A stretch of 64,000 nt of DNA from Oscillospiraceae bacterium (GTDB taxonomy: Bacteria; Bacillota; Clostridia; Oscillospirales; Acutalibacteraceae). Where the stretch lies: contig DPVM01000008.1 in the NCBI GenBank assembly GCA_003526845.1, positions 47,593 through 111,592 on the forward strand. Reading direction: 5' to 3'. Below are positions 38,314 through 56,961 of this stretch, piece by piece (position 1 is the first letter of the stretch; every line of letters starts with the position of its first letter). Position numbers and translations under genes: made by a program. The notes under the pieces were generated by a model. The model saw nothing but the letters and a program-made list of their open reading frames with translations, made no database searches and was not told the DNA's origin.

Positions 38314-39485
38314 AACAAACCGATCTCCTTAAAATAGTCAAGTTCACGCTGTGCCGCCTCGAATGATTCGGCAGTGCCGATTTCAGCCACGGTCGATGCA
38401 ACAAAGTCGCGTCGATGCTTTAGGTTATAAAAAATTCTGCAAATCCAGGCAAGGGGAAGAAGCCGCGGCCTGCCGTTTATGAATTTGATGTACGGCAAAT
38501 CCTTCATCTTCGTGTATGATGGAAAAAGCAGTCTTAATTTCGTTTTGAATTTTGACGGTTTTTTGCCGCTTTCAAGCTCTTTGCGCTCAACAACTGCGGC
38601 AGTGTTTCTGTTTGCGTTGCCGAATGCGCCGAACGAGGACAAAAACTCCTCAGTCATTGATGTGTCGATACCGTAATCTTTGCCGCTGCCGAACCATTTA
38701 TTGCAAACCGTCAAAATCAATTTGGCAAACTCGCAAAGTCCGATATTGTCGAGAAATGCGAGCACCTCGTCATAATCAATATCAAATTTGCGCTCCATAA
38801 CCGCCAAATCAAGTATAAGCTTGATTCCTGCGCCGTAAAACCAAAAATGGTGCGCAATGTGAGTGATTAAATACGCAAAATGATAGCTTGGGTCGAACTT
38901 GCCGCGGTATTCGTCAAACTCGGCATAATTAATAGCGTCGAGAAAGCCGTTTTCCGCATTGCTGTTGCCGACTTTGCCGCTGATGATTTTTGTGTGCACC
39001 TCAATGAGCACGCCGTCCTTGACATAATCAAAAACGGGGCCGTTGGCATTTTTGATTTCAAATCCGCTGTTTAAAAGCGTCTGCTTTGTCAAATCACGGT
39101 TTTTTTCGTCGATAAGCACATCAATATCGCCCATAGCCCTTACCTCGGGAACGGGGTAGTATATGCGAATTTTGGCGCCCTTGAAAAAAACATGGCGTAT
39201 TTTGTTTTTGCAGAGCGCATCGTCAAGCTGTGTCATCACCTTTGTTTGGTCGTCAAAGCGCATTATCGTTTCATAAAAACCGTTTTCAAAAAGGCTGTAT
39301 ATATCGCTTGGCACAATATCTTTGTTTGCGGCGTTTTTGATTACGCTGAATGCAACGGCAATCAAATTTTGCTCCCTGCAAACAGAAAAGAGCCTTGAAT
39401 AATCAACGCTCTTATCAAGATTTAGTGTTTGCCGATTTAAATAAGCATTGCAAATTGATATTAAATATTTTTCTTCTCTATTCAT
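38310..39485 (-). CDS. Uncharacterised nucleotidyltransferase-family protein (NTP_transf_5-like).
   Basis: The Pol-beta-type NTase motif is GDIDVLIDEKNRD. The protein is 391 aa and overlaps the GH27 start by 4 nt. Confidence 0.5.
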   Translation of the reverse strand: MNREEKYLISICNAYLNRQTLNLDKSVDYSRLFSVCREQNLIAVAFSVIKNAANKDIVPSDIYSLFENGFYETIMRFDDQTKVMTQLDDALCKNKIRHVFFKGAKIRIYYPVPEVRAMGDIDVLIDEKNRDLTKQTLLNSGFEIKNANGPVFDYVKDGVLIEVHTKIISGKVGNSNAENGFLDAINYAEFDEYRGKFDPSYHFAYLITHIAHHFWFYGAGIKLILDLAVMERKFDIDYDEVLAFLDNIGLCEFAKLILTVCNKWFGSGKDYGIDTSMTEEFLSSFGAFGNANRNTAAVVERKELESGKKPSKFKTKLRLLFPSYTKMKDLPYIKFINGRPRLLPLAWICRIFYNLKHRRDFVASTVAEIGTAESFEAAQRELDYFKEIGLL

Positions 39486-39501
39486 TCTATTAATTAATGC
39501 T

Positions 39502-40218
39502 TTAAATATAATTGTTTTCGTTCAAAAAGGTATGAGCGGAGCTTAAAATGTTTTTGTCGTTGTCAAATTTCAAAAGGCTCATTGCTCTGTCATATGTCAG
39601 CCAAATATAATCCTCGATTTCCTCAGGCTGAATGACAGTATTTACATCCTTTGTTGTGCCGACAAAAATTGAAACCTGTTTTTCAATCTTGTCCTTAATT
39701 TTATATTTTGACACGCTTTCAAAGCCGTCGATTATATTAAGATGAATACCTGTTTCCTCAAGCACCTCGCGACATGCGGTTTGCTTTTTTGTTTCGCCCT
39801 TTTCGATATGACCTTTTGGAAAGCCCCAATGGGCAGAGCGCTTGTTTTTAATTAAAAGATAGCGCACCTCACCTCTAATATCTCTGAACACGACTGCGCC
39901 GCAACTGCTTTCGTAAAGACATTCAAGCGAATAGGTTGGAAAATCCTTTTTCAAATTAATATATTGCTTTATATCGTTGATAATGAAGCGGGTGCTTTTC
40001 GGAGCCACAATCCAAATGAATTTTTTGTTTCGTCTGTCGCTGAGAACGGCGATAACTCGTCCGTCAAAATTGCGAACAGGATGGTGTATTCCCATTATGA
40101 ATGCAGTTTGATTTTCGTTTGAATAAACTGTGCCGTAATTCAAAGGATAAGTGAAGCCCGCCCCATCATCAGAGCCGATTGGGTTTGTCACCCTGACTCT
40201 AACATATTTTCCGAGCAT
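39502..40218 (-). CDS. NUDIX hydrolase with an additional N-terminal domain of about 110 aa.
   Basis: The Nudix box is GFPKGHIEKGETKKQTACREVLEETGI. I chose the ATG at 40218 after a GGTGG RBS. The ORF-track GTG at 40263 sits only about 15 nt from a TATAAT -10 box at about 40283-40288. Confidence 0.65.
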   Translation of the reverse strand: MLGKYVRVRVTNPIGSDDGAGFTYPLNYGTVYSNENQTAFIMGIHHPVRNFDGRVIAVLSDRRNKKFIWIVAPKSTRFIINDIKQYINLKKDFPTYSLECLYESSCGAVVFRDIRGEVRYLLIKNKRSAHWGFPKGHIEKGETKKQTACREVLEETGIHLNIIDGFESVSKYKIKDKIEKQVSIFVGTTKDVNTVIQPEEIEDYIWLTYDRAMSLLKFDNDKNILSSAHTFLNENNYI

Positions 40219-40295
40219 TGTTTCACCACCGATAAATGCGGGTCGAAATTTGTCGCGACCCACAAAGATAACATAAATTTATTATACTAAAAAAA

Positions 40296-40469: not shown

Positions 40470-43400
40470 TTAAGCAAGTGATTGAAGAAGATCAACCAAT
40501 TTCTTAATAACTGTGTCTGAATCGCCCTTAACCATTCCAAGTACCTGGCTGATGGTGTCTGATATACCGCTGTCTGCGCCGCCGATAAGTCCGCCGATGA
40601 GCTTAACGATTATATCGTAGTTGCCCTTGTAGTTGATTGTGTCAATCAAGTATCTGAGAACAGCGATAAGTGTTTCGTCTTGATCGGACTTAACATAAAT
40701 TCTGCTGCCGTGTGTTGCAGCCTGTGAAGCAGCGTTGAGAACAACTTTGCCGTGGCTTGCAAGTTCGAGCCAATCAATCTCAGGAAGCTCAAGACCGAGA
40801 GGTGAGCCTTTAATCTTGATGATTGGGAGAATCTTGTTGATAAGACCTACAACATTGTCTGCACCGATGAGCGGTTTGAGTGTGCCCTTAAGGTCATAAA
40901 TGTTAAGCTTAATGCCTAAGTTCAAGCCTGCCTTTGCAGTGAGCTTGTTGAGGTCAAAATTAAGTGCTTTAAGAAGAGCATTTACATCAACAACCGACTT
41001 AAGTGAATCAAGGAGAGATGATACTGCGGTGAGGAGATTGTCGATAACCTGGAGCAAACCGTCATTTGCAAAGAAGAGAGCAAGGTTTGGAAGAATGTCA
41101 GCAAGAGTTTCAACCGGAGCAAGGAGAATATCCTCTACCTTATCCATAAGAGGATTAAGGATGTCAAGAAGGATATTGTCATACTCGTTGAAGATATCTT
41201 CTCTGTACTGATATTGTGTTTTAACATTGTAGCAACCGAATGCCTCAAGGAGAGGAACGATTACTGATGAGTAGCCGTCTGAGCCCGGAACGCTTATAAG
41301 ATTGAATAAGCCGAGCGACTTGCTGTTGAGAAGAACATCAAGCACGCCGTAAATCGGACGAAGAACTGCTGTGAGTGCATGCAAGAAGCTTTGTCTGTCG
41401 GTTACGCCCCAAACGAGTGAGTTCTTGTTAACCTTTGACCAAGAACCTGCGTTCTTGATTACGCTTGCTGCTGCAGCATATGTCTTGCCGTACTTTTCAT
41501 TAGTAAGGAGTGACGCAACATTTGATGTTGAGAAGTCAATTCCTGTTTGAGCAAGTAAGGATGTGAGTGATGTTGAGTCGTTAATCTTAACGCCCTCAAC
41601 TGCTTTATAAAGACCTACAGCAAGTGAACTGATAATGTCATCTTTATAAACCATATCGGTTACAAGACCGAGGAGACCGCCCTTGTCTGTGAGAAGGCCT
41701 GTTACGAGACCGTCAAGCATCGGAGCAAGTGTGCGGCAGAAGTCCTCATCAAGGTCGCCGAATGTAAAGCTGCTGTCCTTATACTTGAAGTTTGTGTAGT
41801 CGAAGAATACATTGTTTGCCTGACCGTTCAAGAGATAGAATACTGTGTGAACGAGGTCATCCTGACCTGCAATACCAAGCTGGTTGAATACAACTGTCAA
41901 AATGCTTGATACTGTCTTGTTGGCGCTGAGCTTAATATGCTTCTTCTTGTCTGTTTCAATGTTAAGGATAATCTTCTTGATAGCGTTGTGATTCTTATTG
42001 AGTACCTTTGAAAGGTATCTAAGAACTGTGATAAGAACCTTGCCTTGGTCAGCCTTAACTTGCTTTGTTGTGTATTTGCCGTTTGCATTCTTGGCTGCAC
42101 TTGATTTAGTGCTGATTGTGCCGAGACTTGCAATCTTAGCAAAGCTGATGCTCGGGATTTTAATTCCGGTTTTCTTGATAAGTGAATTTACAAGAGGAAC
42201 AATGATGTCCTGAATGTTGCACTTTTCAAGGTGTGTAAGCTCAAGATGGAAGTCAACCTTGAGGTCGAGGAGGTTGGTTACTAACTCGCCGAGGTCGCCG
42301 CCTGTGAGTTGCTTGATAATCTTGTCAACATTGATGCCGTGCTTGCTGAGAATTCCGAGGATTCCGTTCTTGGCAGTAATCGGAGCAAGGAGATTACCTA
42401 CAACCTGAGCGATACCGTTGCTTTCGATGAAGTAAGCAACATTAGGAAGTACCTTTGAGATTGTGTCAAACGGAGCGTCTACTGCGTCGCCAACAAATGA
42501 AACGATTGGGTTAAAGATGTTGATGAGAAGGTTATCTTTTGCCTTCTTGTAATCTTTCTTGTACTGTGAGTATGTTTTAACATTGTCGCACATAAATGCT
42601 TCAAGTACAGGAATGATTGCGCTTTCGTATCCGTTTGTGCCGAAGTTAAGTGTTGAGTTCTTGTCAATCATTGACTGAATTTGGTTGATAACCGAATTGA
42701 GGTCAAACTTAACTACATTTGTAACATTTTTGTGATTTGAGCCGGTCTTTACATTGCTTCTTACATCAAGTTCAACAACGCCGTTCTTGATAATGTAAGT
42801 AAGCTTGCAGCCGTATTCGCTGTCCTTTGCAATGTTTGTAGAGCCTTTAACATTAATTGCTTTAAGGACTCCCTTAAGGTCGGTATTCTTGAGAGAAAGA
42901 GTACCCTCTGCAAGGAAAATTGAAAGTACATCGTTAAGAGGACGAAGTACAGCGGCAAGGCCGTTTACAAATCCTTCTTTAGCCTTTGATGAGCCGTTTG
43001 AGAAGCCCCAGTTGAGTGACTTAACCTTTTTCCAGCTCTTTGTCTTCTTAAGAGTTGCAGCTGCGGTTGAATATGTTCTGCCGTAGCTCTTGTCTGTAAG
43101 ATAATGAGCGATACCCTTTGTTGAAACATCAATTCCGATTGCGTCAAAAACATTTGCAACTGTGTCGTTACCGTCAAGCGCACCGTAAAGTGTTGTTGCA
43201 AGTTTTGTAAGGTTTTCGTTAGTGTAAAGGTTATCGTTTACAAGTGCGCCCAATCCCTTAATGTCGGTTACGCCGAGGCTGTTAAGGAGCGGGAATACAT
43301 TTTCAACAAGGCTGTCAAGCTGCTTAACAGCGTCGTTAGCGTCGCTTGATGTGATGCCTGTCGGATATGTAAATGATTTGCTGAACTTTGATGCATACTC

Positions 43401-46400
43401 GCTGAATGTCCAATAAACATCAGTCGGGTTTTGAACAGAGTTAATAACTTCTGTTACAATGTTGAGAATTTCGGCAGCCGAAAGATTCTTCAAAATCTTC
43501 GAGATTGCCGGATTCAATCCATCAAGAAGTGCCATGATTTGGTCTGATGTAAGAACTGTGTCAACAACATAGCCGTAAACGAGGAGAAGTACCTCTGCCG
43601 GTGATGAAGCGTTGGCAAGTTTAGACCAATTAATGTTCGGTAATGTGAATACACCGCCGATGAGACCGTTGATTGCTGTTACAAGAACATTTTTCTTCGG
43701 AAGTGAAATAAGCTGTCTGATTCCGCCGCCTAAGAATTTATCGTCTGTTGTATCCTTCTTGGTGTCTTTACCTGCAATTTGAACATTTGCAATGACATCT
43801 GCGAAGGTCGGTGAAAGATATTTAACAATATCAATCAAGCCGGTGACATGTTTGTCAATCGGAGTGATTGCCGCGTTGACAATGTTTGTTACATGTTTGT
43901 CGTCAAGCACACCTGCAAGTCCTTTGACTACATTGAGAAGGAATGATACAGGTGCATCATACATTTTATCAACAATGTTTGCCATAGGAGTAAGGATACC
44001 GGTGATAAGCTGATCAGGAGCAGAAAGCTTGTTGAACTGTGATGCGCTGATAACGCCGCTTGCGCCGGTTGCCTTTGCAATGCTGCTCATAACAGGTTGA
44101 ACGATTGCACTGTAATAGTTGCCGCCGTTGTTGTCTGTTTGAGTCCTTGTGAGAAGAACGCTTACGATTGATGCGATTCCGCTTACTGACTCGCCGAGAG
44201 CATCATAGAATGCTTTCTTATCGCCGTTCTTAAAGCCAAACTTCAGGTAGTCTTTCTTCCAGGAGCTTGATTTTGTATTGGCTGCGGTGATTTCTACCTT
44301 AAATGAATTCCAGTTACGGTAATCTTCACCTTTAAGAATATCTGCTGTCTTAGAGTAATCATCACTGAGTCTTACTGCAACTGCGTCCGGTGAAATCAAT
44401 CCGTAAACCGCATCACCGATGAGCATGTTAGGATCTTTCGACTTCAACACGCCTGTTTCGCTGTTGTAGAATACATAATCCACAACATTTTCAATAAGTG
44501 AATATGTCTGAATTACGAGGTTTGAAAGGTTTGCAGAGGTGTAAACCTGCTTTGCGTTAACATCGCCGGACTTAGTAGCCTTTGTGCCTACCTGACCCTT
44601 TTTACTCGGAGAAACTTTGCTTTCTCCCGATACAAAGTAGAGGTAGTTGTTGAGCAATCTGACAACATCGTTGGTGTTTTTACCGCCGAAGTAGCCTGAT
44701 GCGAATGAAACCAATCCCGATAACAGGTTCTCTGTTGAATCCAAGTCAAAACCGTTGATAGAAGTGTTTGCAAGGAGAGATGAAAGTAATTTGTCGAGAG
44801 CATCAATAAGTGCCTGCGCGTTTTTCGTATTTGTTTTTGAGAGAAGTTTGCTGTAATCTGTACCTGCGGCAGATTTCTTTGATGCTGTAAGGTAAGGTGT
44901 AATGCCCTTTGCGCTTGAGCCGAGTGCATTGCCTACATTATAGCTGTTCTTAGTCTTGCTGCCTTTGATAAGCGTCATTACAACAGGGATGATACCTCTT
45001 GATTCGCCGTCCTTCTTAAACTGAAGGTTTGAAAGGAGGTAGAAACCGCTTTCATTGCTGAAGCCGCAGAATTTTGTCGTTTCTCTCTGTTTAAGAGTGA
45101 ACGATGCTGTATCTGTGCGCTTGAGCTGGAACAAACCGTTGAGCACATCTGTGATGATGCTCTTTTCGCCCAAACCGCCGAGTGAGTCAAGCAAGCCCTG
45201 AACAAGCGGAAGTTTTGAGGTGATGTCGTTGTTCTCATCTGAAAGCGTATCATTGAGAAGGTCAATGATTGCATTCAACCAGTTGCCGACTAATGTGTCA
45301 ACAAATGAATCCAATACTGCGGTAGAGTTGAATGTGCCATCAGCGTTCTTACCCGTTGCAGTGTCTTTAAATGCTTGAAGATTTGCGTTAATCTTTTGAT
45401 TAACAGTTCCGTTTGTAAACGTTTTGCTGATGTTCTTCATCTTGCCGTTGTACAAATATGTCCAATCGGATTTGATATTGTACTTAGCGATGAAGTTCTT
45501 GCCCATATTGTCAAGAATTTCCGGAAGAGCAACAAAAATGTTATTAAGACCCTTTTGTGTTACTTCTGCTGCTGCTGTATATTCAGCGTTGTATCTGAGA
45601 TCCGGATTTTCCTTTTGGTCTGCAAGATACTGTTCAACAGCTTGGGTAGCGAATGAGGCAAGCTCTGTTACGATTTCGTCGATGCCCTTTGCTGTCTTAT
45701 CGTATGATGAGTCATACTTTGTATTGTTAGCGGCGCATTCCTCTTTCTTCTTGTTGATAAGAGCTTTTGCAAGTCCGCCGTTTAAGTGTGCACCGTAGAG
45801 AGCCTTATCCGCAACATAGATATTTGTGAATCTCGGAATGTCGCTGTGCTCTGTGTTGTAAGGAGCTTCGTCATAATAGCCGAACATATCTTTGAAATAT
45901 GCTTCGTCCTTATCGCCGAGTAACCAGTGAAGTATACCCGGAACAATTTTGTTGAGGTCAAAACGAAGTGCACCGATACCAACCTCTGTATCGCCAACCG
46001 ATTGTGAGTATTTAGTAAGAATACCTTTGCCGGTGCAAAGAATGCCATAAAGGTCAAGAAGTGGTTTTGCATCATCGTCTGCGTTGAATAACAACGGAAC
46101 AACAAGCTCATCAAGTGCGATAGTGATTGTCGGGAGCAATTTGAATATTGTTGCTACCGGGTCGTTATAGAGGTCAAGCCAAATGTCTTTAAGAGTTTCG
46201 GCAACATCAATGTCTGTTTCAAACAAACTGCTGATGATACCACCGATGTCAAGACTATCAAGGCTGAATCCGCCGTCGTTGTTATTGTTGTTGCCGCTGT
46301 CGCCTTTTTTCTCCAAAAGTTTAACGATTTTATCGTTGAGCAGCGAGTTTGTTGCATAAACGATTAAGCTGTCCGGAATTTTATAATCGTTGTAATTGTA

Positions 46401-48059
46401 GCTGTACTTGCTGAGATCGTCTTTGTAGTAGCTTACAAACTCAATATAGCTTGAGAGATATACCGAGCAGTCATATGCACCGAAAACAGTGCCAAGTGGT
46501 GATGACTGGTTTGCAGCAGGAGCAAACTCGGTTTTTACAACATAACCGGGGACCATATAGTTTATCAAATCAACAAATGTAAGATCGTCTGTGAGAGAGC
46601 CGTACTGCATTTTATATGAGCCGGTGTATTTCCAGTTCATCAAATCGTCAACATTGTCTGTTGATTGTGCAAGACGAACAAAAGGAATAAGATATTGTTT
46701 ATAATCCTTATGGTCTGATATTGCTCTCAAATACTCTTTTGCGGGTGTGCTGAATGTGCAACTGCTCGAATTGAGGAATTCGGCAAAGTAAACAGTTTCG
46801 TCTCCGTTTGGTTTGTTGTCCTTAACATAGTCAAGGAAAGACTGCATTTGTGCTTTTGTGATGTTGTACTTGTCGTCAATTTCCTTTGAGTTCTTATACA
46901 AGCCCGATGCAATAAGCACGCCTTTTGCATATTCACTGTAGTAGTCGGTAGGGAATTTGTTTTGAGTGAATTGAGTGCCTTGTGCAGTAAAGAAAGCATA
47001 GACCGTCATCGAGATATTTATATCTCTGTACTCTTCCCAACGGGATTTGTCTGTGTCGGACATTTTGCTGTAGTCCTGACCGTTATCGGTGCAAAATTGC
47101 TCAATCGGAAAGAGCGGTCTTAAAACTTTGAGATAGTTTTTAGGAGTAAGTACGGTCTTTGTGGTTCCGCCGAACTCTTCGTCAGTGATTTTCAGTCCAC
47201 CCATATTGGTAAGACCTAAAAGCTGTTTAGCGGTTAAGTCAAATATGCCATCACCGTAGAAAAGATAAAGTGCATCTGCAAGAGTTTTAACGCCGTCATC
47301 TGCACCCGAAACCTTATACATTGTGTTCATGTATTTGATAACAATGTCCAAGTCCGGATCTTTGATGTCTTTAATTTTTGTGCCTTTGTATTTGGCATTT
47401 TCGATATCGTATTTGGTAACAATGCCGTCTTTTGTTTCGGTAGGAACAGCCTGAGCGTATTCGTTCTCATACTTATCGTAACCTGTAGCAAATTCCGTAA
47501 GCCTGTCAGTTTGCACATTTGTAAATACATTTCTGAGCGTGGTGAGTTTCGGAAGTGTTTCTCGTGCATATTTTTTAAGTTCTTCGTTTGAGGAATTTTG
47601 ATTTTGCGAACAGAACTGATATAATGCATAGAAATTCATTGCATTGTTGCCGTCACCGTTAAGATATGCGTAGTTAAAGTTTGTGTTCATACCGGCATTT
47701 GCGTTTTCGCCCAAAACATCGCCGATATTGGCGCTGCTGCCGAGTGCACCCAAAACTGTCGGTGACACACCTACTACCAAATCTTTAATGGTTGTGCTCG
47801 AGGTAACGGTCATGCCGAGTTTGTCCTCAAGCAGGCTCTTGACTTTCGGTATATTCAGCAATTGCGGGATATACTCGTCAACCAAGTCATTAAGTGAACT
47901 GTATGCAGCTGTTGCATCAGTTCCGTTTGACCAATAGTCGTTGTTGCTGTCGGTCTTATTCTTGTCCGCGGCAAATGCCGTGAAGCCGACAGAACAGCTC
48001 GTAATGATCATGACCAGAGCCAAAAACAGGCTCAGGAATTTTTTGCTCGTTTTTTTCAT
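40470..48059 (-). CDS. Giant secreted protein of 2529 aa, function unknown. It has a signal peptide with an AFA-A cleavage site and an internal repeat of about 450 aa. I cannot recognise a catalytic or anchoring domain.
   Basis: A single uninterrupted 7.6-kb ORF with an RBS (AAGGAGAG) before MKKTSKKFLSLFLALVMIITSCSVGFTAFA-ADKNK. Coding-like composition holds throughout. Confidence 0.85.
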   Translation of the reverse strand: MKKTSKKFLSLFLALVMIITSCSVGFTAFAADKNKTDSNNDYWSNGTDATAAYSSLNDLVDEYIPQLLNIPKVKSLLEDKLGMTVTSSTTIKDLVVGVSPTVLGALGSSANIGDVLGENANAGMNTNFNYAYLNGDGNNAMNFYALYQFCSQNQNSSNEELKKYARETLPKLTTLRNVFTNVQTDRLTEFATGYDKYENEYAQAVPTETKDGIVTKYDIENAKYKGTKIKDIKDPDLDIVIKYMNTMYKVSGADDGVKTLADALYLFYGDGIFDLTAKQLLGLTNMGGLKITDEEFGGTTKTVLTPKNYLKVLRPLFPIEQFCTDNGQDYSKMSDTDKSRWEEYRDINISMTVYAFFTAQGTQFTQNKFPTDYYSEYAKGVLIASGLYKNSKEIDDKYNITKAQMQSFLDYVKDNKPNGDETVYFAEFLNSSSCTFSTPAKEYLRAISDHKDYKQYLIPFVRLAQSTDNVDDLMNWKYTGSYKMQYGSLTDDLTFVDLINYMVPGYVVKTEFAPAANQSSPLGTVFGAYDCSVYLSSYIEFVSYYKDDLSKYSYNYNDYKIPDSLIVYATNSLLNDKIVKLLEKKGDSGNNNNNDGGFSLDSLDIGGIISSLFETDIDVAETLKDIWLDLYNDPVATIFKLLPTITIALDELVVPLLFNADDDAKPLLDLYGILCTGKGILTKYSQSVGDTEVGIGALRFDLNKIVPGILHWLLGDKDEAYFKDMFGYYDEAPYNTEHSDIPRFTNIYVADKALYGAHLNGGLAKALINKKKEECAANNTKYDSSYDKTAKGIDEIVTELASFATQAVEQYLADQKENPDLRYNAEYTAAAEVTQKGLNNIFVALPEILDNMGKNFIAKYNIKSDWTYLYNGKMKNISKTFTNGTVNQKINANLQAFKDTATGKNADGTFNSTAVLDSFVDTLVGNWLNAIIDLLNDTLSDENNDITSKLPLVQGLLDSLGGLGEKSIITDVLNGLFQLKRTDTASFTLKQRETTKFCGFSNESGFYLLSNLQFKKDGESRGIIPVVMTLIKGSKTKNSYNVGNALGSSAKGITPYLTASKKSAAGTDYSKLLSKTNTKNAQALIDALDKLLSSLLANTSINGFDLDSTENLLSGLVSFASGYFGGKNTNDVVRLLNNYLYFVSGESKVSPSKKGQVGTKATKSGDVNAKQVYTSANLSNLVIQTYSLIENVVDYVFYNSETGVLKSKDPNMLIGDAVYGLISPDAVAVRLSDDYSKTADILKGEDYRNWNSFKVEITAANTKSSSWKKDYLKFGFKNGDKKAFYDALGESVSGIASIVSVLLTRTQTDNNGGNYYSAIVQPVMSSIAKATGASGVISASQFNKLSAPDQLITGILTPMANIVDKMYDAPVSFLLNVVKGLAGVLDDKHVTNIVNAAITPIDKHVTGLIDIVKYLSPTFADVIANVQIAGKDTKKDTTDDKFLGGGIRQLISLPKKNVLVTAINGLIGGVFTLPNINWSKLANASSPAEVLLLVYGYVVDTVLTSDQIMALLDGLNPAISKILKNLSAAEILNIVTEVINSVQNPTDVYWTFSEYASKFSKSFTYPTGITSSDANDAVKQLDSLVENVFPLLNSLGVTDIKGLGALVNDNLYTNENLTKLATTLYGALDGNDTVANVFDAIGIDVSTKGIAHYLTDKSYGRTYSTAAATLKKTKSWKKVKSLNWGFSNGSSKAKEGFVNGLAAVLRPLNDVLSIFLAEGTLSLKNTDLKGVLKAINVKGSTNIAKDSEYGCKLTYIIKNGVVELDVRSNVKTGSNHKNVTNVVKFDLNSVINQIQSMIDKNSTLNFGTNGYESAIIPVLEAFMCDNVKTYSQYKKDYKKAKDNLLINIFNPIVSFVGDAVDAPFDTISKVLPNVAYFIESNGIAQVVGNLLAPITAKNGILGILSKHGINVDKIIKQLTGGDLGELVTNLLDLKVDFHLELTHLEKCNIQDIIVPLVNSLIKKTGIKIPSISFAKIASLGTISTKSSAAKNANGKYTTKQVKADQGKVLITVLRYLSKVLNKNHNAIKKIILNIETDKKKHIKLSANKTVSSILTVVFNQLGIAGQDDLVHTVFYLLNGQANNVFFDYTNFKYKDSSFTFGDLDEDFCRTLAPMLDGLVTGLLTDKGGLLGLVTDMVYKDDIISSLAVGLYKAVEGVKINDSTSLTSLLAQTGIDFSTSNVASLLTNEKYGKTYAAAASVIKNAGSWSKVNKNSLVWGVTDRQSFLHALTAVLRPIYGVLDVLLNSKSLGLFNLISVPGSDGYSSVIVPLLEAFGCYNVKTQYQYREDIFNEYDNILLDILNPLMDKVEDILLAPVETLADILPNLALFFANDGLLQVIDNLLTAVSSLLDSLKSVVDVNALLKALNFDLNKLTAKAGLNLGIKLNIYDLKGTLKPLIGADNVVGLINKILPIIKIKGSPLGLELPEIDWLELASHGKVVLNAASQAATHGSRIYVKSDQDETLIAVLRYLIDTINYKGNYDIIVKLIGGLIGGADSGISDTISQVLGMVKGDSDTVIKKLVDLLQSLA

Positions 48060-48859
48060 AATCATCTCTCCTTTTTTCTAATGATTAACACTATTTGCAG
48101 CAAATTATTAAAACATAATAGCCGTTTTCGTGCCTAATTGCACAAGGAGAAGAACGCCCAATCTTTTGATTTTTGAGCGCAAAGTTCCCTTGTGAACGAA
48201 CAATTCATTTATATTTATACCAAATAAATATTTAAAAGTCAATAGAATTTTAAATATTTTTTAATAATTTATTAATTCAATATTATTTATGAATAAATAC
48301 AGTTATATTCATTATTATAATATTAATAACATATTATGTCATCTGATATTCTTTGCTTGGTTGCAGATACGGAGAAATTTTGAACTGCTACTTAAAAAAG
48401 ATATAAACATTTTGCAAAAAATTATTGAAAAAGCTGTTTGCAACGACTGACTAATAACACACTTCTACATGTTGTTTTTATCAAATGATAATCGCAGCCG
48501 AAACACAACATACGGACACTGTAAAGGCAATGAGTTGACCGAATTGAACAGCTGTAAAGTCTAACAGCATTACATTTTACTCATTTCAAAATGTGTAAAA
48601 TAAATCCGCAAACAAAATGTAAAATAATTATTAACAAATTGTAAATTTTAATCAGCGGATAATCAACATTCGGCTGCTAATTTGACGGAAAAATGCGAAA
48701 TTTGCAACCTTTGGGCAAATTTGACTATACATTCGCCCATTTTGTGAACAAATTATGTAAAAAAATAATTGACTTTTGACGGTTTGATATGTTTTAATAT
48801 ATATGCGTGATATGCGCTATTGTGTTCAACTGTTTGTGAACACACTTGTTCCTCAGTCT

Positions 48860-48896
48860 ATTGCGAATTTGTCGCAATGGGTCAGAGATTGCGACA
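48860..48896. promoter_or_regulatory. Candidate operator: palindrome ATTGCGAATTTGTCGCAAT plus a third half-site ATTGCGACA, about 60-90 bp upstream of the 2170-aa gene.
   Basis: A perfect 7-bp inverted repeat with a 5-bp spacer lies at 48860-48878. The related half-site is at 48888-48896, within an 886-bp AT-rich divergent intergenic region. Confidence 0.35.
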
Positions 48897-48951
48897 GCAT
48901 ACAGTTCTTAATAGTGCAATTCGTAATATTTAATGGAGGTAAAATTAAAAA

Positions 48952-51900
48952 GTGGAAACTAAATACTCTAAAGTTTTTGCTAAAAAGCTTTTGGCTTTGT
49001 TCCTCTCGGTTCTCATGGCATTAACTTGCTTCACCGGTGCTTTAAATGCGTTTGCCGCAAGTAAAGACAGCGATAAAGATTATTATGACGATAACCTTGC
49101 CGCTAACTTTATGGCATGGGCAGAAACCACCGACGAGCAAACAGCAGAAGCACTTCTTAACTACGCTGATAAGCATTTGCCTGATTTAGCTACTTCGCTT
49201 CTTGGTTCAACACATGTTTACTTCAGTGTAAACGCCGTTGTTGCTACCATCACAATTGACGGTTATCTTGACAGCGTTGACGGTGCTTTCGACCTTGTAA
49301 AACAGGCTCAAGATATCCTCGGCAAGTTCGGTAATGTCGTAGGCGGCGATGTTAAAAATCTCGACCTTACTCCGATTTCCAGCTTGACCCCTGCTTCTTC
49401 GGGAAAATATGTTGTTTCTGACTGTGGCAAATCATACCGTCAGAACTACAGCGCAAAAGAGCTTGTTGTTGCACTTGCCAAAGTGTTGTATGTTAACTCA
49501 AACGACCTTGCCGGCAAGAACATTTTGGGTCAGTTCGTTAAAGGTAAATTTAACCTCGGTAACCTTCTTCAAAACCTCATTTTGAAAAAGGACGTTTACG
49601 CTCTTCTCCAAGATACACTTGATATGTGGAGCGGCTATCAGTACAACCTTGTTTATAACATCGTTGCTAATGTTATGATTAAAAATACCGATTGGTTTAC
49701 CGATGAGGAAAAAACAGCTTATTATGCTGACCTTAAAGCAACAAACGCAAGCGGAAGAACTTATGCTTGGAACTATGATGATGTACTTTTCAAAGCTTTA
49801 AGCAAATCGCTTCTTCAGAAGATAAGTGTATTAGTAACATATAATACATATTATACCAATGATAAGGGCGAAACTATTCCTGAATCTTCTTATACAAGAT
49901 ACAAGGATGGCAAAATCCAAGACAGCAAACTTGTTTACTCCGACGAGTTTATGGATAAGGAAAACAACAAAATGAATGTTTACCTTTTCCAATATGACTT
50001 TAACGGCGACGGCAAAATCGAAGATATGAACAGCGACGGACAGGAAGAAAAACTTTCTATCGCAAAGAATGATACTCTTTATTCTTTCGCTTTCAGAGCT
50101 TTGAAGCTTGCTTGGTATACAGTTCTTAAAGACACTCTCGGCACAGTTCATGTTAATGATGACAATGTTAAAACCGATAATGCTGACTTCAAGAACTTTG
50201 ATAATCTTTTCTTCTATTGGAAACAAAAATCAGAAAACGGCGGTTGGAATTACACAGACTGGACTTCCAACTATTCAGCTGCTAATGTAAAAGCTTGGGC
50301 AGAATCTGCATATGCAGGTTACAAATATAGCTCTGCCGATGCTTTCCTTGCAGATGTTAAGGCAAATCTTTCTTATGACAGAAATGTTGTTGACAATGCT
50401 AAGGGCAATTGGAGAGATGTTGATTCAACAAAGCTCTTCGCAAAGCTTCGTTACAGCCCGCTTGCTGATAAATATTTCAATATGCAAACAGGTCCTATCA
50501 ACCTTTACTTCACACAAACAGGCACAGCCGATATTGATTCATTCTTCGAGACAGCTTTCTCAAAGTATAACAATATGGTATCCGGCTTCAACGATGCTCT
50601 TGTTGCTGTAACAAAGACTATCTTTATCAACAGCGACAACATCGGCTACGGCTCAAAGGATAACAAGCCTGTTACAAACCTTGAAGTTCCTACAATGGGT
50701 GAGACAGGTCCTACAGACAGTATTTCTACAATTTCAACAACACTTGTAGCAAATACAATGAATATGGTTGAATATGTTGCAAACGCAACAGATCCTAACC
50801 TTCTTAACGGCTTCTATAAGAAAAACAACTTGACTATGAAGACAAGCGGCGTTTCTATTAAAGAGCCGGGTAACCTCAACGAGAGCAATTTTGAGGATGC
50901 TATGCTGCCTCTTCTTATCTCTTGTCTCCAAAACATCAATATGCTTGATCCTGTTCATGACGAAGTATGGGATTCATGTAAGGATGCCGAAGGTGTTGCA
51001 GTAGTTGCACTTGAGGAATATCTTTCATTCGTACTTCCTGACAAGGATTACTCCGTTCTCTATACATATGATTCAAACGGATACATTGTCGCAAAGAATA
51101 ACGGCTCACTCTTTGACAGCGCTGTTCTTCCGATGGCACGTGACGCTCTGAGCTATGTTATCCAATCTGTTGTTCCTTGCCTCTACAAGGATTCAAACAA
51201 TAACTGGAAAGAATGGGATGTTTATACTGCTCCTGTAACAAGCGAGGCAGACCTTCTTGACATTCTCAACTCGGTTATTTGCTACTATGCTTCACAGGAT
51301 ACCTTCAAGGACTGCGGTTACAAAGCAGGCAGAAAGGCTGATTCTTACGGCAAGGCTGTTGCATCACTTCTCGGTGTTGTAAACGCTGACGGCTCCTGCC
51401 AGGTTACACTCAACAATACAATTTGGCAAAATCTTGACGCTGTTGTTAACAAGCTTCTCCCCATTGTTGGTACTCTCCAATACGGTGACACAAGCAAAGC
51501 AGGTCAGGCATCAACAAAATCTCTTATCTGGGATGAACTTGTAAACGGTATTCTTGATATCGCTGACACCCACGCTTCAGGCAAGCAGGGTATCACAAAT
51601 CTTATTGAAAGAATCCTTACAGTTGTTACTGCTCCTCCGATTTCGGCAAAGGGCGTAGATAAGATGGTTTATGATGACTTCCTTGTTCCGTTTGCTAACG
51701 CTTTGTTCGGCGGAAGATATTCAGGCCAGCATTATGATAAGGTTATCCCTTATTCATCATGGTATGACAAGGATGCTTATGCAGATACTAAGTCGGATTC
51801 ACCTTTCGATTCACTTGTAACAACAAGTACTCTCGGCTACTATTCGGCATCTAACGATACTGCCGACGGTAAAGAGACAGGTGTTCTCGGTATTCTCATT

Positions 51901-54900
51901 TACAACATCTTTGAAATTTTCGGTGGCACAGACACTTATTCCTATACTAAACATGCAGGTGCTAAGGGTGCTTGGACCGGTGCAATGTTCGCGGTTGAGG
52001 CTGTAAATAACTTCCTCCCATCATTCGTTCCGAGTATTTCAGACCATAACTTGAGCGCTGCTACTGCAGTTGTTAAGAATGCGTCACTTTCAGGCTTGAC
52101 CGACGGTTCTTCCTTCGGTACAAACAGCCTCAACATCACTAATAACGCATCGGGTCTTAACAGATTCTACAGAGATGCAAACGGTGATGTTCATCAAAGC
52201 GACAGATACTTTATGTATATCGACAGTATCGATATTGCATCAACGAACGGTTCCTCATCAAACCTTACATTGGGTGATTATGAGAAAGTTGTTTCTCCTG
52301 ATGAAACACTGAGAGTTTCTCTCACAGGTGCTGCTCCGAAGGGTAATGCACTTTATACATTTAAAGTTAATTACTCAATTTTCAAGGGCAAAACTTCAGG
52401 TTCAACAAAGCCGTCTATCACTCCTGAAAATACATATGCAACAAACCTCACGGCTACTGCATACTTGTATATGACAGAGGATAAGGCTTGGCAGCAAACC
52501 GTTTATAACAACTCGGGTGAATTTAATACTGCATATCAGGGATCGGGAGCAAACCAATCCAATGATTATACATTTACATCGGATGAAGGCGGTACAGGTA
52601 AGAACCTCTACGCTACATTCCCGAAGGCATTCATTATTCCTAAGTCTGAATTGAAAGGCTCAAAGAACTTTACAAAGAATGTTATTCGCGTTACTAACAA
52701 GAGCGGTAGATCGACAGCTCTTGGCGTTATTGGCGGTAATACATATTCATTCGACGGTATGTACACCTATCTTTCATCGGGCACTAAGTATTATGCTGTA
52801 ACTGATGGAAAAATTGCCGATACACTTACAACTGCTTCGGCTGCTAACGATAAAGTTGCATATGTTGCGGTTGATAAGTCAACAGGTAATATCCTTAACT
52901 ATAACTTGTATGACTATTCAACAGATAACGGTAAATCTTGGAACCGCGGCGAAAAGCAAGCAACCGGCGTTTACGGCGGTTACACTTCAGAGGAAGTCAA
53001 TGCTCTTCCTGAAAAGGACAATGACGGCTTCACAACAAGAGCCCATGTTGCTTGGACAATGGATGAATTCCTTGCTTCAGGCTACGCATTCGGTGTTCAA
53101 AGAGAAGAAGCTGCTCCTGATGCTCAAGGCAACAAGACATATGTTTACAATTCTGTAATGATTAACTTGAAAGGCAATGCAGAAAAAGAGGTATCTTGGA
53201 CTTCAACAAACGACGGCAATACTTACAATTCTTCTGTAGCAACACTCCTTCTTCAGGGTAAGGCAGATTGCAACGGTAAGCTTTCAATTTCGTTTGGTAC
53301 TCCTATTGCCGGTCTCTACTTTGCAACATCTAAGACAGCAATTACTAAACAGTCATCTGCCAATGTTCAGTTCCTTGCGTATGACGGATCAACCGATATG
53401 GATGTTCAAGACTTCGATATGCCGGTATTCGTTTATACTACAAACAACCCGAACCTCAGGGGTACTGTTCATATGTATGTAGCCGATGACTCTGTTTCTA
53501 CAACCCTTAATACACAGTATAACGCTGCACTTAAGGCATCAGCTACTTATGCATCAAATGACTTTACAGACGCTGATTCAAACGGCGACTCTGCAACTTA
53601 TAATGCATTCCAGAATGCGCTTTCAGATTCTGTTAAGCTCATTTCTACACCTATCACAACAGCAAATGCAACCACACTCGGTAACAAGACTCAGGTAGTT
53701 CCTAAAACAACCGAAACAACATCAAACCTTAATAAGGATGTTGCTTACGAACCTGTTTCTAAGGACACTGCTCTTCCGGCTGCTCTTCAGGCAGACGCTA
53801 CAAAGGGCTCTGATTTCTGGTATATCGACAAGGCTTGCACAATTCCGATTTATTCGGCAACAGAGCTCACCGGCTCTAACCTTACTCAGGACGCAGCAGG
53901 ATATTCAGTTGCTAAGAGTGATGAAGACAACAAGTATCACTATGTAAATGCTCCTACATCGGAGACTGCATGGGATACTACAACATATGTCGACAGCACT
54001 TTGAATGAAACATATCCGTATCTCTATGAGACCGGCGTTCAAAAGAAGGATTCAAACGGCAAGGCACTCTATAAAGAGGTTAACTTCGTCTACAGAGATA
54101 AAGACGGTAAGAAGTGCACCTCTAAGGATGCTTGGGCTTACAAGTTTGCTGAAACAGTTACAGAATCAGTTCCTAACGATGCTGCCACTGCAACTGACAA
54201 CCGTGGTATCTATCAAAAAGCTCTTGATAATATCACATACAATATGATTCAGCTTAAATCAAAGGTTAATACTGCAATTGCTTCTCGTATCGATGGCAAT
54301 AAGGACTCTGACGGCAAATATATTGATGTTGTTCAATCACGCAAGGGTCTCAACAGTGTTAACTTCAATGTTGCATCATATGAAAAGATGGTACAAATCG
54401 CTAAGGATGCAGAATCTCTTATCTACTATGTTGATAAGGTAGATGCACAAGGCAATAAGGTTATCGCTAAGGATGAAAACGGTAAGGAAATTACCGACGC
54501 TGCAGGCAACCCTGTTTACGAACAAGAGCCTAAGACAGAGCATTCATCACTCGAAATCAAAGCCGCTCTCGATATGTATAATGAGTACAAGGGATATGTT
54601 CAAAGCCGCGGCTATAAGGGCGCTAAGCTTGAGCAGGAAATCACTTGTGCTACAACTAAAAACTATGATCACGCTCAAAACAAGAACCTTGTTGACAGCG
54701 ATATCCTCACCAAGGATGACTTCACCGTTTCTATCACTCGCGATGATACTACAGGTGCTATCACAGCCGCTACTGTAACTAATAAGACATCAAAGGGCGC
54801 TAAATACGGCAAGTATGTTGGCGGCGTTCTCGCTAATGAAGGCGATGTTGTTTACAGCGATGTATCATGGACTAATTATGTAAATGCTCTTGCTGAAGCA

Positions 54901-55464
54901 ATCGAGGTTGCTCAGGAAGGCACTGCAAATATTTCAAAGATTTATACAATTAAGTGTAATCTTGCAAATGCCGAAAACGCTCTCACTGCAAAGAGCGCTG
55001 ATCCTGAACCGTCTGACACCATCACTGTTTCCGGTAAGGTAACAATTGCTACAAATCTTGACGGTACAGCAGGTGATAAGGGCATTGTAGGTATTAATGT
55101 TGCAACAGCAGATAAGTCAATCGTTGCTACCACTGCTTCTGACGGTACATTCACTATTGAAGTTCCGGCAGGCACAACAGAGCTTGTTGTTTACGGCGAC
55201 ACAACTGTTGACAGAACTGTTACTCTTTCGGGTACAGCAAGCGTAAGCGATGTTGTTATCCCAATCAATATCTGCGACTATGTTAAGAATGGCTCAATTG
55301 ATGCGTACGATAACTCTAAGTTTGTCGCTGCACTCAATAATGGTGAATATGGTATTTACTATGACCTTGTACCTAATGGAGAGCTTGACGCTTATGATAA
55401 CTTACAATTCTTAGCATTCTTGAACAAAGATATTGTTTATGCACCGTTAGCACTTGATAAATAA
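48952..55464 (+). CDS. Giant secreted protein of 2170 aa, N-terminally paralogous to the 2529-aa protein. Its C-terminus is a CarbopepD_reg-like beta-sandwich followed by a type-I-like dockerin.
   Basis: It has a GTG start with a GGAGG RBS. The signal peptide ends ...LTCFTGALNAFA-ASKD. The C-terminus reads ...VTIATNLDGTAGDKGIVGINVA..TASDGTFTIEVPAGTTELVVYGD..., then CDYVKNGSIDAYDNSKFVAALN ... YDLVPNGELDAYDNLQFLAFLN. These are two calcium-binding F-hand-like segments. Confidence 0.85.
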   Translation: METKYSKVFAKKLLALFLSVLMALTCFTGALNAFAASKDSDKDYYDDNLAANFMAWAETTDEQTAEALLNYADKHLPDLATSLLGSTHVYFSVNAVVATITIDGYLDSVDGAFDLVKQAQDILGKFGNVVGGDVKNLDLTPISSLTPASSGKYVVSDCGKSYRQNYSAKELVVALAKVLYVNSNDLAGKNILGQFVKGKFNLGNLLQNLILKKDVYALLQDTLDMWSGYQYNLVYNIVANVMIKNTDWFTDEEKTAYYADLKATNASGRTYAWNYDDVLFKALSKSLLQKISVLVTYNTYYTNDKGETIPESSYTRYKDGKIQDSKLVYSDEFMDKENNKMNVYLFQYDFNGDGKIEDMNSDGQEEKLSIAKNDTLYSFAFRALKLAWYTVLKDTLGTVHVNDDNVKTDNADFKNFDNLFFYWKQKSENGGWNYTDWTSNYSAANVKAWAESAYAGYKYSSADAFLADVKANLSYDRNVVDNAKGNWRDVDSTKLFAKLRYSPLADKYFNMQTGPINLYFTQTGTADIDSFFETAFSKYNNMVSGFNDALVAVTKTIFINSDNIGYGSKDNKPVTNLEVPTMGETGPTDSISTISTTLVANTMNMVEYVANATDPNLLNGFYKKNNLTMKTSGVSIKEPGNLNESNFEDAMLPLLISCLQNINMLDPVHDEVWDSCKDAEGVAVVALEEYLSFVLPDKDYSVLYTYDSNGYIVAKNNGSLFDSAVLPMARDALSYVIQSVVPCLYKDSNNNWKEWDVYTAPVTSEADLLDILNSVICYYASQDTFKDCGYKAGRKADSYGKAVASLLGVVNADGSCQVTLNNTIWQNLDAVVNKLLPIVGTLQYGDTSKAGQASTKSLIWDELVNGILDIADTHASGKQGITNLIERILTVVTAPPISAKGVDKMVYDDFLVPFANALFGGRYSGQHYDKVIPYSSWYDKDAYADTKSDSPFDSLVTTSTLGYYSASNDTADGKETGVLGILIYNIFEIFGGTDTYSYTKHAGAKGAWTGAMFAVEAVNNFLPSFVPSISDHNLSAATAVVKNASLSGLTDGSSFGTNSLNITNNASGLNRFYRDANGDVHQSDRYFMYIDSIDIASTNGSSSNLTLGDYEKVVSPDETLRVSLTGAAPKGNALYTFKVNYSIFKGKTSGSTKPSITPENTYATNLTATAYLYMTEDKAWQQTVYNNSGEFNTAYQGSGANQSNDYTFTSDEGGTGKNLYATFPKAFIIPKSELKGSKNFTKNVIRVTNKSGRSTALGVIGGNTYSFDGMYTYLSSGTKYYAVTDGKIADTLTTASAANDKVAYVAVDKSTGNILNYNLYDYSTDNGKSWNRGEKQATGVYGGYTSEEVNALPEKDNDGFTTRAHVAWTMDEFLASGYAFGVQREEAAPDAQGNKTYVYNSVMINLKGNAEKEVSWTSTNDGNTYNSSVATLLLQGKADCNGKLSISFGTPIAGLYFATSKTAITKQSSANVQFLAYDGSTDMDVQDFDMPVFVYTTNNPNLRGTVHMYVADDSVSTTLNTQYNAALKASATYASNDFTDADSNGDSATYNAFQNALSDSVKLISTPITTANATTLGNKTQVVPKTTETTSNLNKDVAYEPVSKDTALPAALQADATKGSDFWYIDKACTIPIYSATELTGSNLTQDAAGYSVAKSDEDNKYHYVNAPTSETAWDTTTYVDSTLNETYPYLYETGVQKKDSNGKALYKEVNFVYRDKDGKKCTSKDAWAYKFAETVTESVPNDAATATDNRGIYQKALDNITYNMIQLKSKVNTAIASRIDGNKDSDGKYIDVVQSRKGLNSVNFNVASYEKMVQIAKDAESLIYYVDKVDAQGNKVIAKDENGKEITDAAGNPVYEQEPKTEHSSLEIKAALDMYNEYKGYVQSRGYKGAKLEQEITCATTKNYDHAQNKNLVDSDILTKDDFTVSITRDDTTGAITAATVTNKTSKGAKYGKYVGGVLANEGDVVYSDVSWTNYVNALAEAIEVAQEGTANISKIYTIKCNLANAENALTAKSADPEPSDTITVSGKVTIATNLDGTAGDKGIVGINVATADKSIVATTASDGTFTIEVPAGTTELVVYGDTTVDRTVTLSGTASVSDVVIPINICDYVKNGSIDAYDNSKFVAALNNGEYGIYYDLVPNGELDAYDNLQFLAFLNKDIVYAPLALDK

Positions 55465-55857: not shown

Positions 55858-56961
55858 ATGAACTTTTTAAAAAAGAAAGTATTACCCATCCTACTCGCAT
55901 GCATAGTGATACTCCTTGCCGCTGTTCCGCAAATTTCTGTATTTGCTGAAAAAGGAACGCTCGGCACGGAGAATCCGGTTTGGAAAGCATCATTTCTCGA
56001 TTCTGACGGCAATGCAGCCGACGGCAATTCGCTCCTTGCGGGTGAATACACCGTCAACCTTAATCTGTATGGAATGAAAACCGTTTCGGTTTTGCAGATA
56101 TCTGCAACATATACCGATGCGGTCACCGTCAATTCGTGCAAAACGATAGCACAATCTAAGTCGGCTCTATTTCGTGACATAATAAAAAAAGAAAATGATA
56201 ATGAATTCGACGCCGTTGTTGCCGCATACAACAGCGATTCCGTTATTACCGCCGTTGATATTGCAGATGGCGAAACAATGGTGTCACTTAATATAACAGT
56301 TAATACTCCGGGCGATTTTGCGAATTATTTTTCTCTCAATACCGACCCTGAGCGCACATATATCGGCGCCGATCTCGGCGACGGCTATGACAGCGCATAC
56401 ACCTGTGTCGAAAGCGCAGATGTTCAGGCTCCGAGCGACAGAAAATATTATCCAAATATCACACACGATATGTCGCCGGATATTAGCGTAAAAACATACG
56501 ATGTTAAAGGTCAAATCACAATAGCTACAAATCTTGACGGCACAGCCGGCACAACCGGAATTGTCGGTATCACTGCCTCCGTTGCAGTGGGTGACAAAAC
56601 TGTCACCGCAACAACTGACTCGGAGGGCTACTACACCCTTTCCGCTTTGCCGGAGGGCACATATACCGTCACCTTCAGCGGCTCAACAACTGTCGACCGC
56701 ACTGCAACGCTCGTCGTTTCAGCCGATAAGGCAGATTCAAACGGTTTAATCACCGTTTCCGCTGTTCCGATTTGTATTTGTGATTATGTCAAAAATGGCG
56801 AAATTGACGCATATGATTATTCAACATTTGTTACTTCATTTAATGGTGATTATAATATTTACTGTGATTTGATAAAGAATGGTGAAATTGATGCGTATGA
56901 TATGTCACAATTTTTGGTATTTCTTAACAAAACTGTCGAATATGCAAAAATTGCATTATGA
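55858..56961 (+). CDS. Secreted dockerin-containing protein of 368 aa. It has an unknown N-terminal domain plus a CarbopepD_reg-like module and a dockerin homologous to the C-terminus of the upstream giant protein.
   Basis: The signal peptide is MNFLKKKVLPILLACIVILLAAVPQISVFA. The C-terminus reads ...GQITIATNLDGTAGTTGIVGI..., then CDYVKNGEIDAYDYSTFV ... CDLIKNGEIDAYDMSQFLVFLN. The ORF-track start at 55795 has no signal peptide and was discounted. Confidence 0.7.
   Translation: MNFLKKKVLPILLACIVILLAAVPQISVFAEKGTLGTENPVWKASFLDSDGNAADGNSLLAGEYTVNLNLYGMKTVSVLQISATYTDAVTVNSCKTIAQSKSALFRDIIKKENDNEFDAVVAAYNSDSVITAVDIADGETMVSLNITVNTPGDFANYFSLNTDPERTYIGADLGDGYDSAYTCVESADVQAPSDRKYYPNITHDMSPDISVKTYDVKGQITIATNLDGTAGTTGIVGITASVAVGDKTVTATTDSEGYYTLSALPEGTYTVTFSGSTTVDRTATLVVSADKADSNGLITVSAVPICICDYVKNGEIDAYDYSTFVTSFNGDYNIYCDLIKNGEIDAYDMSQFLVFLNKTVEYAKIAL

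Follow-up and report, generated by a model that had tools for sequence, protein, structure and literature searches.

The 64,000-nucleotide stretch of Oscillospiraceae DNA analysed here (the window; positions 47,593 to 111,592 of contig DPVM01000008.1) contains two giant, divergently transcribed genes, which we call A and B. An initial annotation had described such a divergent pair, and both open reading frames (ORFs) were found where it had placed them, with the spacer between them:

40470-48065, minus strand: gene A, 2531 amino acids (aa) from the first ATG or about 2529 aa from MKK (MKKTSKK, 2 codons in)
48066-48951, no strand: divergent intergenic spacer between A and B, 886 bp, 29% GC, with both promoters and two long conserved leaders
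48952-55464, plus strand: gene B, 2170 aa, with a GTG start and GGAGG upstream

There are 111 homologues of A, mostly 2400-2640 aa in length and none with a Pfam domain, and 465 full-length-type homologues of B, which among those listed are mostly about 2000-2200 aa; many of the latter carry PF00404. The two sets each include 99%-identical clusters, with more than 1000 member sequences each, and the 99%-identical homologues are close in length to the window proteins (2533 aa for A, 2170 aa for B). An interruption of the ORFs, which the annotation had named as a possible objection, was not found: both are intact, and the many full-length orthologues rule out chance, broken or artefactual ORFs. 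In both proteins the N-terminal signal peptide is the only hydrophobic stretch (in A, residues 8-34 are the only segment scoring >2.0) and internal transmembrane segments are absent, in line with the claim that both are secreted; a pore-former or membrane protein was rejected on the same ground. B is predicted to be exported by a Sec signal peptide, and A by one of the same type. The Cys reported 8-9 residues ahead of an AFA↓A cleavage site was seen in both N-termini.

The locus is widely conserved. When one genome per GTDB species was scanned, 186 loci with an A relative emerged, and 79 of them were retained. With few exceptions these come from metagenome-assembled genomes (MAGs) named 'Eubacterium sp.', Ruminococcaceae or Oscillospiraceae, from the guts of humans, ruminants, pigs, rabbits and chickens, and the type strain of Eubacterium coprostanoligenes, ATCC 51222, carries the locus as well, on NZ_FUWW01000014. 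The window itself comes from an uncultured gut bacterium related to E. coprostanoligenes. The E. coprostanoligenes group, within the Clostridia, is a prevalent gut lineage of humans and livestock that converts cholesterol to coprostanol; its cell surface is, to our knowledge, essentially undescribed. Gene B lay divergently upstream of A in all 47 evaluable species, and a third gene, C388, lay behind B in 43 of 43. Of 69 evaluable species, 54 had a NUDIX gene no more than 4 kb downstream of A, accompanied in nearly all of the 54 loci by an NTP_transf_5 gene and an alpha-galactosidase gene. The A-B-C388 unit is thus tighter than the surrounding synteny, and two of the largest genes of the lineage are kept in every species examined.

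Relationship between A and B

A and B had been taken for paralogues with clearly related N-termini. By BLASTP, only residues 7-69 of A aligned with residues 10-79 of B (E 0.003), and hhalign, employed to compare a 29-sequence alignment of A with a 32-sequence alignment of B, produced a single N-terminal match of 62 columns (90% probability). A shared stretch of some 62-71 residues therefore stands, but it consists mostly of the signal peptide, and the style of that peptide (KK..LS.FLA.VM...S.SVG.TAFA) is generic in this organism: it recurs on the window ORFs 1150-3813, 14341-14844 and 57005-59746 and in the wider superfamily to which the repeat module of A belongs. Signal-peptide likeness was accordingly rejected as a special feature of the pair. 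A short helix past the cleavage site (DYW..TDA...LN.LVD.YIP.L in one protein, NFMAWAETTDEQTAEALLNYADKHLPDL in the other) may be truly common to both. Beyond residue ~70 nothing aligned, even profile against profile; hidden Markov models (HMMs) of the A repeat module had no significant match in B, and the secondary-structure layouts of the two proteins differ. Descent of A and B from a gene duplication, with a common architecture, is therefore scarcely credible, and judged by their sequences the two belong to unrelated families.

The statement that neither protein has recognisable domains was borne out for A, which had no match in Pfam, NCBIfam, PHROGs or sequence and profile searches of the Protein Data Bank (PDB), but not for B, whose C-terminus consists of an X-module and a dockerin. 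This X-dockerin was the sole PDB match of either protein, and apart from a weak CarboxypepD_reg match in B, Pfam and NCBIfam gave nothing significant. The reported richness in Asn, Lys, Thr and Gly was only partly right: A is Leu-rich (11.7%) and B is rich in Ala, Thr and Asp. We modelled residues 1332-2531 of A with AlphaFold2 (29-sequence alignment; pLDDT 74.8, pTM 0.60) and residues 37-1100 of B from a 32-sequence alignment (pLDDT 82.7, pTM 0.80), in each case about half of the protein. The model of A was mainly helical with small beta hairpins, whereas that of B was compact and mixed alpha/beta; as modelled, neither part has a known fold.

Protein A and the superfamily of its module

A is built of an N-terminal signal peptide, a hypervariable region and a series of large modules:

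47967-48065, minus strand: signal peptide, residues 1-33, MIMKKTSKKFLSLFLALVMIITSCSVGFTAFA↓AD, with a Cys at residue 24 in a lipobox-like ITS-C
46266-47768, minus strand: hypervariable region, about residues 100-600, of low identity to the window sequence among homologues
43449-44351, minus strand: module copy 1, about residues 1239-1539, diverged (i-E 7e-9 with the HMM of the last module; tile BLAST agrees)
41832-43340, minus strand: module copy 2, residues 1576-2078 (HMM E 5e-29 and 1e-41)
40473-41765, minus strand: module copy 3, residues 2101-2531, the most conserved part of A

The module measures about 430-500 aa, and tile BLAST and the HMM agreed on three clear copies, with faint echoes near residues 619-650 and 915-967. 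Copies 2 and 3 are 34-43% identical by BLAST, and copy 2 contains a beta insert of ~80 aa at about 1728-1808. The core motifs of copy 3 are AVLRPxYGVLDVLL, GSDGYxSxIVPLLEAFGCYNVKTQYQYR and ILNPLxDKVEDILxAPxETLADILPNLxLFFANDGL. Averaged across homologues, identity to the window protein is 61% in residues 1-100, falls to 19-34% in residues 100-600 and reaches 65-74% in the last 430 residues, a gradient that would be expected if the tip varies and the base is conserved.

Employing the last-module profile of A as a query against 1.84 billion representative proteins, we found 648 clusters at E <=1e-3, of which 332 were at E <=1e-30. As defined here, a member of this superfamily has at least one copy of the ~430-aa module behind a Sec signal peptide, with the motifs RPxYGVLDxLL, G(S/A)xGYxxxIxPLLEA(F/L)G and PxxxLxxxLPNLxxFxxxxG; A qualifies with its three clear copies. 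Member proteins are ~850 to 7691 aa long and contain as many as 17 matched stretches, and most of those listed with an intact N-terminus bear the same kind of signal peptide. One distant relative (P0111) has at least 5 repeats with the motifs G.xGY...I.PLLEALGC, then NPL.D.V..I...P, then LPNL.YF...NG, and a neighbourhood without a B-like partner. Where the sources give a name, which is rare, it is always 'hypothetical protein', in MAGs assigned to Clostridia, Ruminococcaceae or Eubacterium. Searches of Pfam and NCBIfam yielded nothing usable for 12 relatives and no informative domain for 16 diverse ones; matches of P0234 to B5 and asparaginase were spurious fragments, with zero stretches accepted. 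By profile similarity, A is the founding member of a large undescribed superfamily of predicted giant envelope proteins, and its module opens at least 648 clusters of giant secreted proteins without annotation in the sources checked.

The C-termini of the superfamily fall into three classes. In the first, a transmembrane helix is followed by poly-Lys; the second has a conserved amphipathic tail (..PNGFI.FFQKI..FFKKI..FFKNLF, or ..LNWFQRLIKKIKEFFEKIF); the third has neither and includes the A family, which always ends in ...GD.D.VI..LVDLLQ..A(G). The FFxKI tail was frequent in giant relatives (P0265-P0372, e.g. P0293, P0316 and P0330, up to 7691 aa). No NCBIfam model matched the tail-bearing P0308, P0310 and P0346, and the tail resembles a C-terminal signal for membrane attachment or sorting, of a kind not yet described.

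Like A, giant Gram-positive adhesins (Ebh, SasG/Aap-type and LPXTG proteins) are secreted and very large, contain repeats in tandem and combine a conserved base with a variable tip. They differ in that the A repeat is a mostly helical module of ~450 aa with no Pfam or PDB relative, and in their anchors: A has no LPXTG, SLH, GW or choline-binding anchor, and its relatives use the transmembrane helix with poly-Lys or the FFxKI tail. Uncharacterised secreted proteins of ~7300-7700 aa and ~2640 aa have been reported from the 'Hodor' megaplasmids of gut Bacillota, with S-layer or MBG domains and sortase anchoring (bioRxiv 10.64898/2026.02.21.707213). Compared by size and description only, these resemble some superfamily members in length; the members that we scanned have no S-layer or MBG domains, and the A/B locus is chromosomal and syntenic.

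Three TM-anchored members of ~855 aa (P0509, P0431 and P0405; 43-55% identical to the query P0320) were looked up in their genomic context (L081-L086, e.g. L084 6001-11350). A gene of ~917 aa encoding a fused ABC_tran+FtsX protein of the MacB/FtsEX type lies 0-23 nt behind them, which suggests that the A-type module may work with a mechanotransmitting ABC system. One of these loci (L086, 11837-14640) also contains a diversity-generating retroelement (bAvd + RVT_1) beside a 1998-aa DUF6273/fn3 protein, just downstream of an 879-aa module protein and its ABC/FtsX gene.

Protein B, its gene cluster and surface display

B comprises a large N-terminal domain and a C-terminal X-dockerin, and is followed by two genes for secreted proteins:

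49060-52041, plus strand: globular alpha/beta N-terminal domain of B, predicted to be novel, about residues 37-1030
55030-55446, plus strand: X-module and dockerin of B (CarboxypepD_reg-like Ig, about residues 2027-2100; dockerin, about 2105-2165)
55858-56961, plus strand: C388, a small secreted protein directly downstream of B, with a putative cohesin - X-module - dockerin architecture
57005-59746, plus strand: D913, a secreted protein of 913 aa that contains Cys-rich repeats as well as an InlB B-repeat (Pfam Flg_new_2, E 8e-7)

The N-terminal domain is conserved at ~50% identity, whereas residues 1100-1500 are variable (26-32%). At the C-terminus, two duplicated calcium-loop segments, DYVKNGSIDAYD and DLVPNGELDAYD, are visible in the sequence, as in a dockerin with its two duplicated Ca-binding loop-helix segments. 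In the PDB, the best counterpart of the B family profile was the X-dockerin 5k39_B (E 8.7e-8); type I dockerins followed with weaker matches (E 0.008-0.02). Pfam CarbopepD_reg_2 was matched at E 0.003; the window protein alone stays under the Pfam threshold for dockerin, which many of its orthologues pass. By profile, the C-termini of both B and C388 match X-dockerin components of cellulosomes and amylosomes, namely those of Clostridium thermocellum CipA (2b59, 3kcp) and of a 'protein of unknown function' of the same species (5k39).

C388 starts with a signal peptide. Its C-terminus matched the X-dockerin of CipA/ScaB both as a profile (E 5e-17) and as a single sequence (1e-5). In C388 orthologues, residues ~55-174 matched the Pfam Cohesin model from position 3 to position 124 of its 139 (E 2.7e-4 and 1.1e-3); Cohesin was matched in 5 and Dockerin_1 in 19 of 26. 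An X-dockerin together with a near-full-length Cohesin match indicates that C388 is probably a monovalent adaptor-scaffoldin-like protein. D913 contains four Cys-rich repeats of the PATC..GSYDEVVRC type; one of 23 orthologues matched Pfam Cohesin (E 0.003), and the N-terminal domain of D913 might represent a cohesin of divergent sequence. B is thus predicted to head a three-gene cohesin-dockerin cluster with C388 and D913. Known non-catalytic dockerin-bearing components provide a parallel, in that B's cluster likewise holds a cohesin-bearing gene (C388, with its sub-threshold Cohesin). Among the cellulosomal proteins described, the remaining ~2000 residues of B have no counterpart, and B lacks a carbohydrate-binding module (CBM), glycoside hydrolase (GH) domain or cohesin. 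By these profile matches, B is a conventional kind of cohesin-dockerin cargo with an unconventional, new cargo domain.

X-dockerins are typical of scaffoldins. CipA, ScaA and ScaB resemble A and B as large secreted proteins whose host has cohesin-dockerin genes, but Pfam, PDB profile and fold searches detected no cohesin module in either protein, so that neither counts as a scaffoldin. No catalytic or carbohydrate-binding module was recognisable in either. Pfam also detected no LPXTG sorting signal or SLH repeats, and there is no hydrophobic segment at either C-terminus (...LVDLLQSLA in A, ...VYAPLALDK in B). The initial suggestion that the two proteins fit neither scaffoldins nor known adhesin families was upheld. 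In the literature searched, no paper ties coprostanoligenes to dockerin or cohesin and none describes the A/B proteins; the published mucinolysome of Limousia belongs to a genus different from that of the A/B host.

Because neither A nor B resembles a described family or a solved fold, any function assigned to them remains a guess. In the reading that we prefer, and to which we give an even chance, A and B are unrelated giant extracellular proteins of a conserved divergent surface-protein locus that serve in surface architecture, or in adhesion to particles or host glycans, and not in catalysis. B would be displayed on the cell surface via cohesin-dockerin binding with its novel domain facing outward. 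Since relatives of A end in a transmembrane helix or the FFxKI tail, the conserved C-terminal end of A is probably proximal to the cell and the N-terminus an exposed tip; the hypervariable region would then form this tip, as in adhesins under diversifying pressure. The A family appears to have lost its C-terminal anchor, and we propose that A is retained by binding B or by a lipidated Cys of its signal peptide. The lost anchor, the conserved last module and the conserved distal N-terminal domain of B together led to a model in which B captures A and tethers it through the X-dockerin and a cohesin; we put this forward tentatively and think it rather improbable.

Several points weigh against the preferred reading. 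The loci are orthologous, syntenic regions, so adjacency of A and B is by itself weak, suggestive evidence, and contact between the two proteins is purely inferred. The candidates for the cognate cohesin of B's dockerin come from sequence comparison: C388 orthologues score 19.7-21.6 bits with the Cohesin model, just below the gathering cut-off of 24.1, and the only PDB match of the D913 N-terminal profile, the type II cohesin 5g5d_A, was non-significant (E 0.32). The B N-terminal domain has numerous Asp, Glu, His, Arg, Tyr and Trp residues that are invariant, which would fit an enzyme equally well. As to a lipidated Cys, the residue at position -1 is a non-canonical Thr in 49 of 108 A-family members, and a good signal-peptidase-I site (AFA↓A) lies 8 residues past the Cys.

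These last two observations bear equally on the strongest alternative, that A is a lipoprotein anchored by its N-terminus and acting without B, the divergent adjacency being merely inherited gene order. The A of the window does fit a PROSITE-type lipobox (IITS-C, Cys at residue 24), and the Cys is kept in 107 of 108 A-family members. At the aligned position of TM-anchored relatives with the same signal-peptide ending, Cys occurs in 1 of 9 and the other 8 have I, L, V or M, a hint that the Cys replaces the lost anchor; synteny across species extends over the whole neighbourhood, which also speaks for this alternative. However, lipidation would put the hypervariable region at the membrane and the most conserved part distal, the reverse of the usual adhesin layout, and the linkage of A to B (47/47) is stricter than that of A to its other neighbour (54/69). 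We consider a lipoprotein independent of B possible but doubtful.

It is unlikely, in our estimate, that B (possibly also A) represents a new family of enzymes, with the ~1000-aa N-terminal domain of B catalytic (e.g. in glycan or protein degradation) and delivered by the dockerin to a cellulosome-like complex. Most dockerin-bearing cellulosome proteins are enzymes, and such a role would agree with the compact, confidently folded model and invariant polar and aromatic residues of the domain, and with the genes for an alpha-galactosidase (36601-38313) and a GH127 enzyme (17620-19545) in the window. The want of a recognisable catalytic module in A or B stands on the other side.

A and B might also be antagonistic weapons, whether giant polymorphic toxins, proteins resembling Tc or large clostridial toxins, or effectors that depend on contact. 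The size (~2500 aa), the secretion signal and the variable region of A would suit such a role, but it is very improbable: the searches revealed neither a domain nor a fold of the toxin, Rhs, Tc or glucosyltransferase type, A varies at its N-terminal side and is most conserved at the C-terminus, the conserved cluster shows no small immunity-like gene, the locus keeps its position in all 47 evaluable species, and phage or defence-island context is absent. Pfam gave no match to a TcA shell or pore or to glucosyltransferase, protease or delivery domains of toxins, and TcdA4 (6rw9) was noise in the Foldseek comparison (E 3.1, TM 0.06). An origin from a prophage, tail fibre or toxin was rejected, with no phage family match of either protein in PHROGs and no toxin fold.

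Some 4,000 residues of A and B together count as structural dark matter. If the preferred surface reading is right, B would indicate that cohesin-dockerin systems of gut Clostridia display cargo besides carbohydrate-active enzymes. A wider proposal, which goes beyond what we would expect to hold, is that the A module is the building block, with a new fold, of a widespread unrecognised class of giant envelope proteins in uncultured gut and rumen Clostridia. These would have anchors of their own (the FFxKI tail, a TM helix with poly-Lys or, in the coprostanoligenes group, the partner B capturing A via a cohesin-dockerin chain), and new structured leader RNAs would control both genes, possibly as read-through or antitermination elements for very long transcripts. 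The predictions are testable directly in culture, since the complete locus is present in ATCC 51222.

Leader RNAs and neighbouring genes

The spacer between A and B was compared in 66 sequences (the window and 65 related loci). Its length varies from 624 to 963 bp (median 755), and the conserved k-mers include the ribosome-binding site (RBS) of A, AAAGGAGAGAT, and a -10-like box, TGGTATAAATATA. The 5' leader of B contains a structured RNA:

48810-48930, core 48854-48891, plus strand: structured RNA in the 5' leader of B, with covariation over 31 species

In this RNA, a stem P1 formed by 48854-48859 (CAGTCT) and 48886-48891 (AGATTG) surrounds the hairpin P2 (48860-48878), which is variable, and the stretch GGTCAGAG (48880-48887), which is strongly conserved. 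Over the 31 species, 92.4% of cells were paired and compensatory changes occurred in 9 of 11 pairs; 0 of 500 shuffles reached the observed level, slid controls were 28-43% paired, and RNAalifold recovered P1. With a covariance model, no locus had more than one match; every match lay in the leader of B, and the rest of the 1.75 Mb searched had none. Rfam gave no significant match in the spacer, the sole match (E 0.15) being far under its gathering score. The B-leader RNA is thus, separately from the proteins, a candidate for a new cis-regulatory element. By eye, further helices can be seen: a hairpin upstream, and an outer stem that includes GCGACAG.

The leader of A (~150 nt; 48066-48330, minus strand) also has blocks kept across species. 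After the -10-like box there is a block TTGTTCGTGCG.GTGGG.ATTTTGCGCCCAAAA, which can also be written TTGTTCGT(G/T)C...GGG.A.TTTGCGC(C/T)C(A)AAAA. Its flanks look, by eye, like a covarying long-range stem (CACAAGGGAA paired with TTCTCCTTGTG in the window), and AAATCAT.A lies ahead of the RBS AAAGGAGAGATG. A direct repeat, TGTGAACAAATTGTTAACA, with two TGT(G/T)AACA half-sites ~11 nt apart, is present at 48735-48760 of the window and in the A-B spacers of eight other loci (L028, L037, L043, L047-L049, L064 and L076); it may be a transcription-factor site common to both divergent promoters.

Elsewhere in the window, the secreted proteins encoded at 1150-3813 and 14341-14844 (both plus strand) have the signal peptides MKKIISVFLSVVMLVSALSVGTVAFA and MKKFLSIILSVIMVFSVGLASTSVAMA, of the same style as those of A and B; the former protein (887 aa) has only a C-terminal fn3 match and is otherwise without annotation. 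Directly downstream of A, on the minus strand at 38310-40263, lie the NUDIX gene and the NTP_transf_5 gene, the latter for an uncharacterised nucleotidyltransferase, and then the alpha-galactosidase gene.

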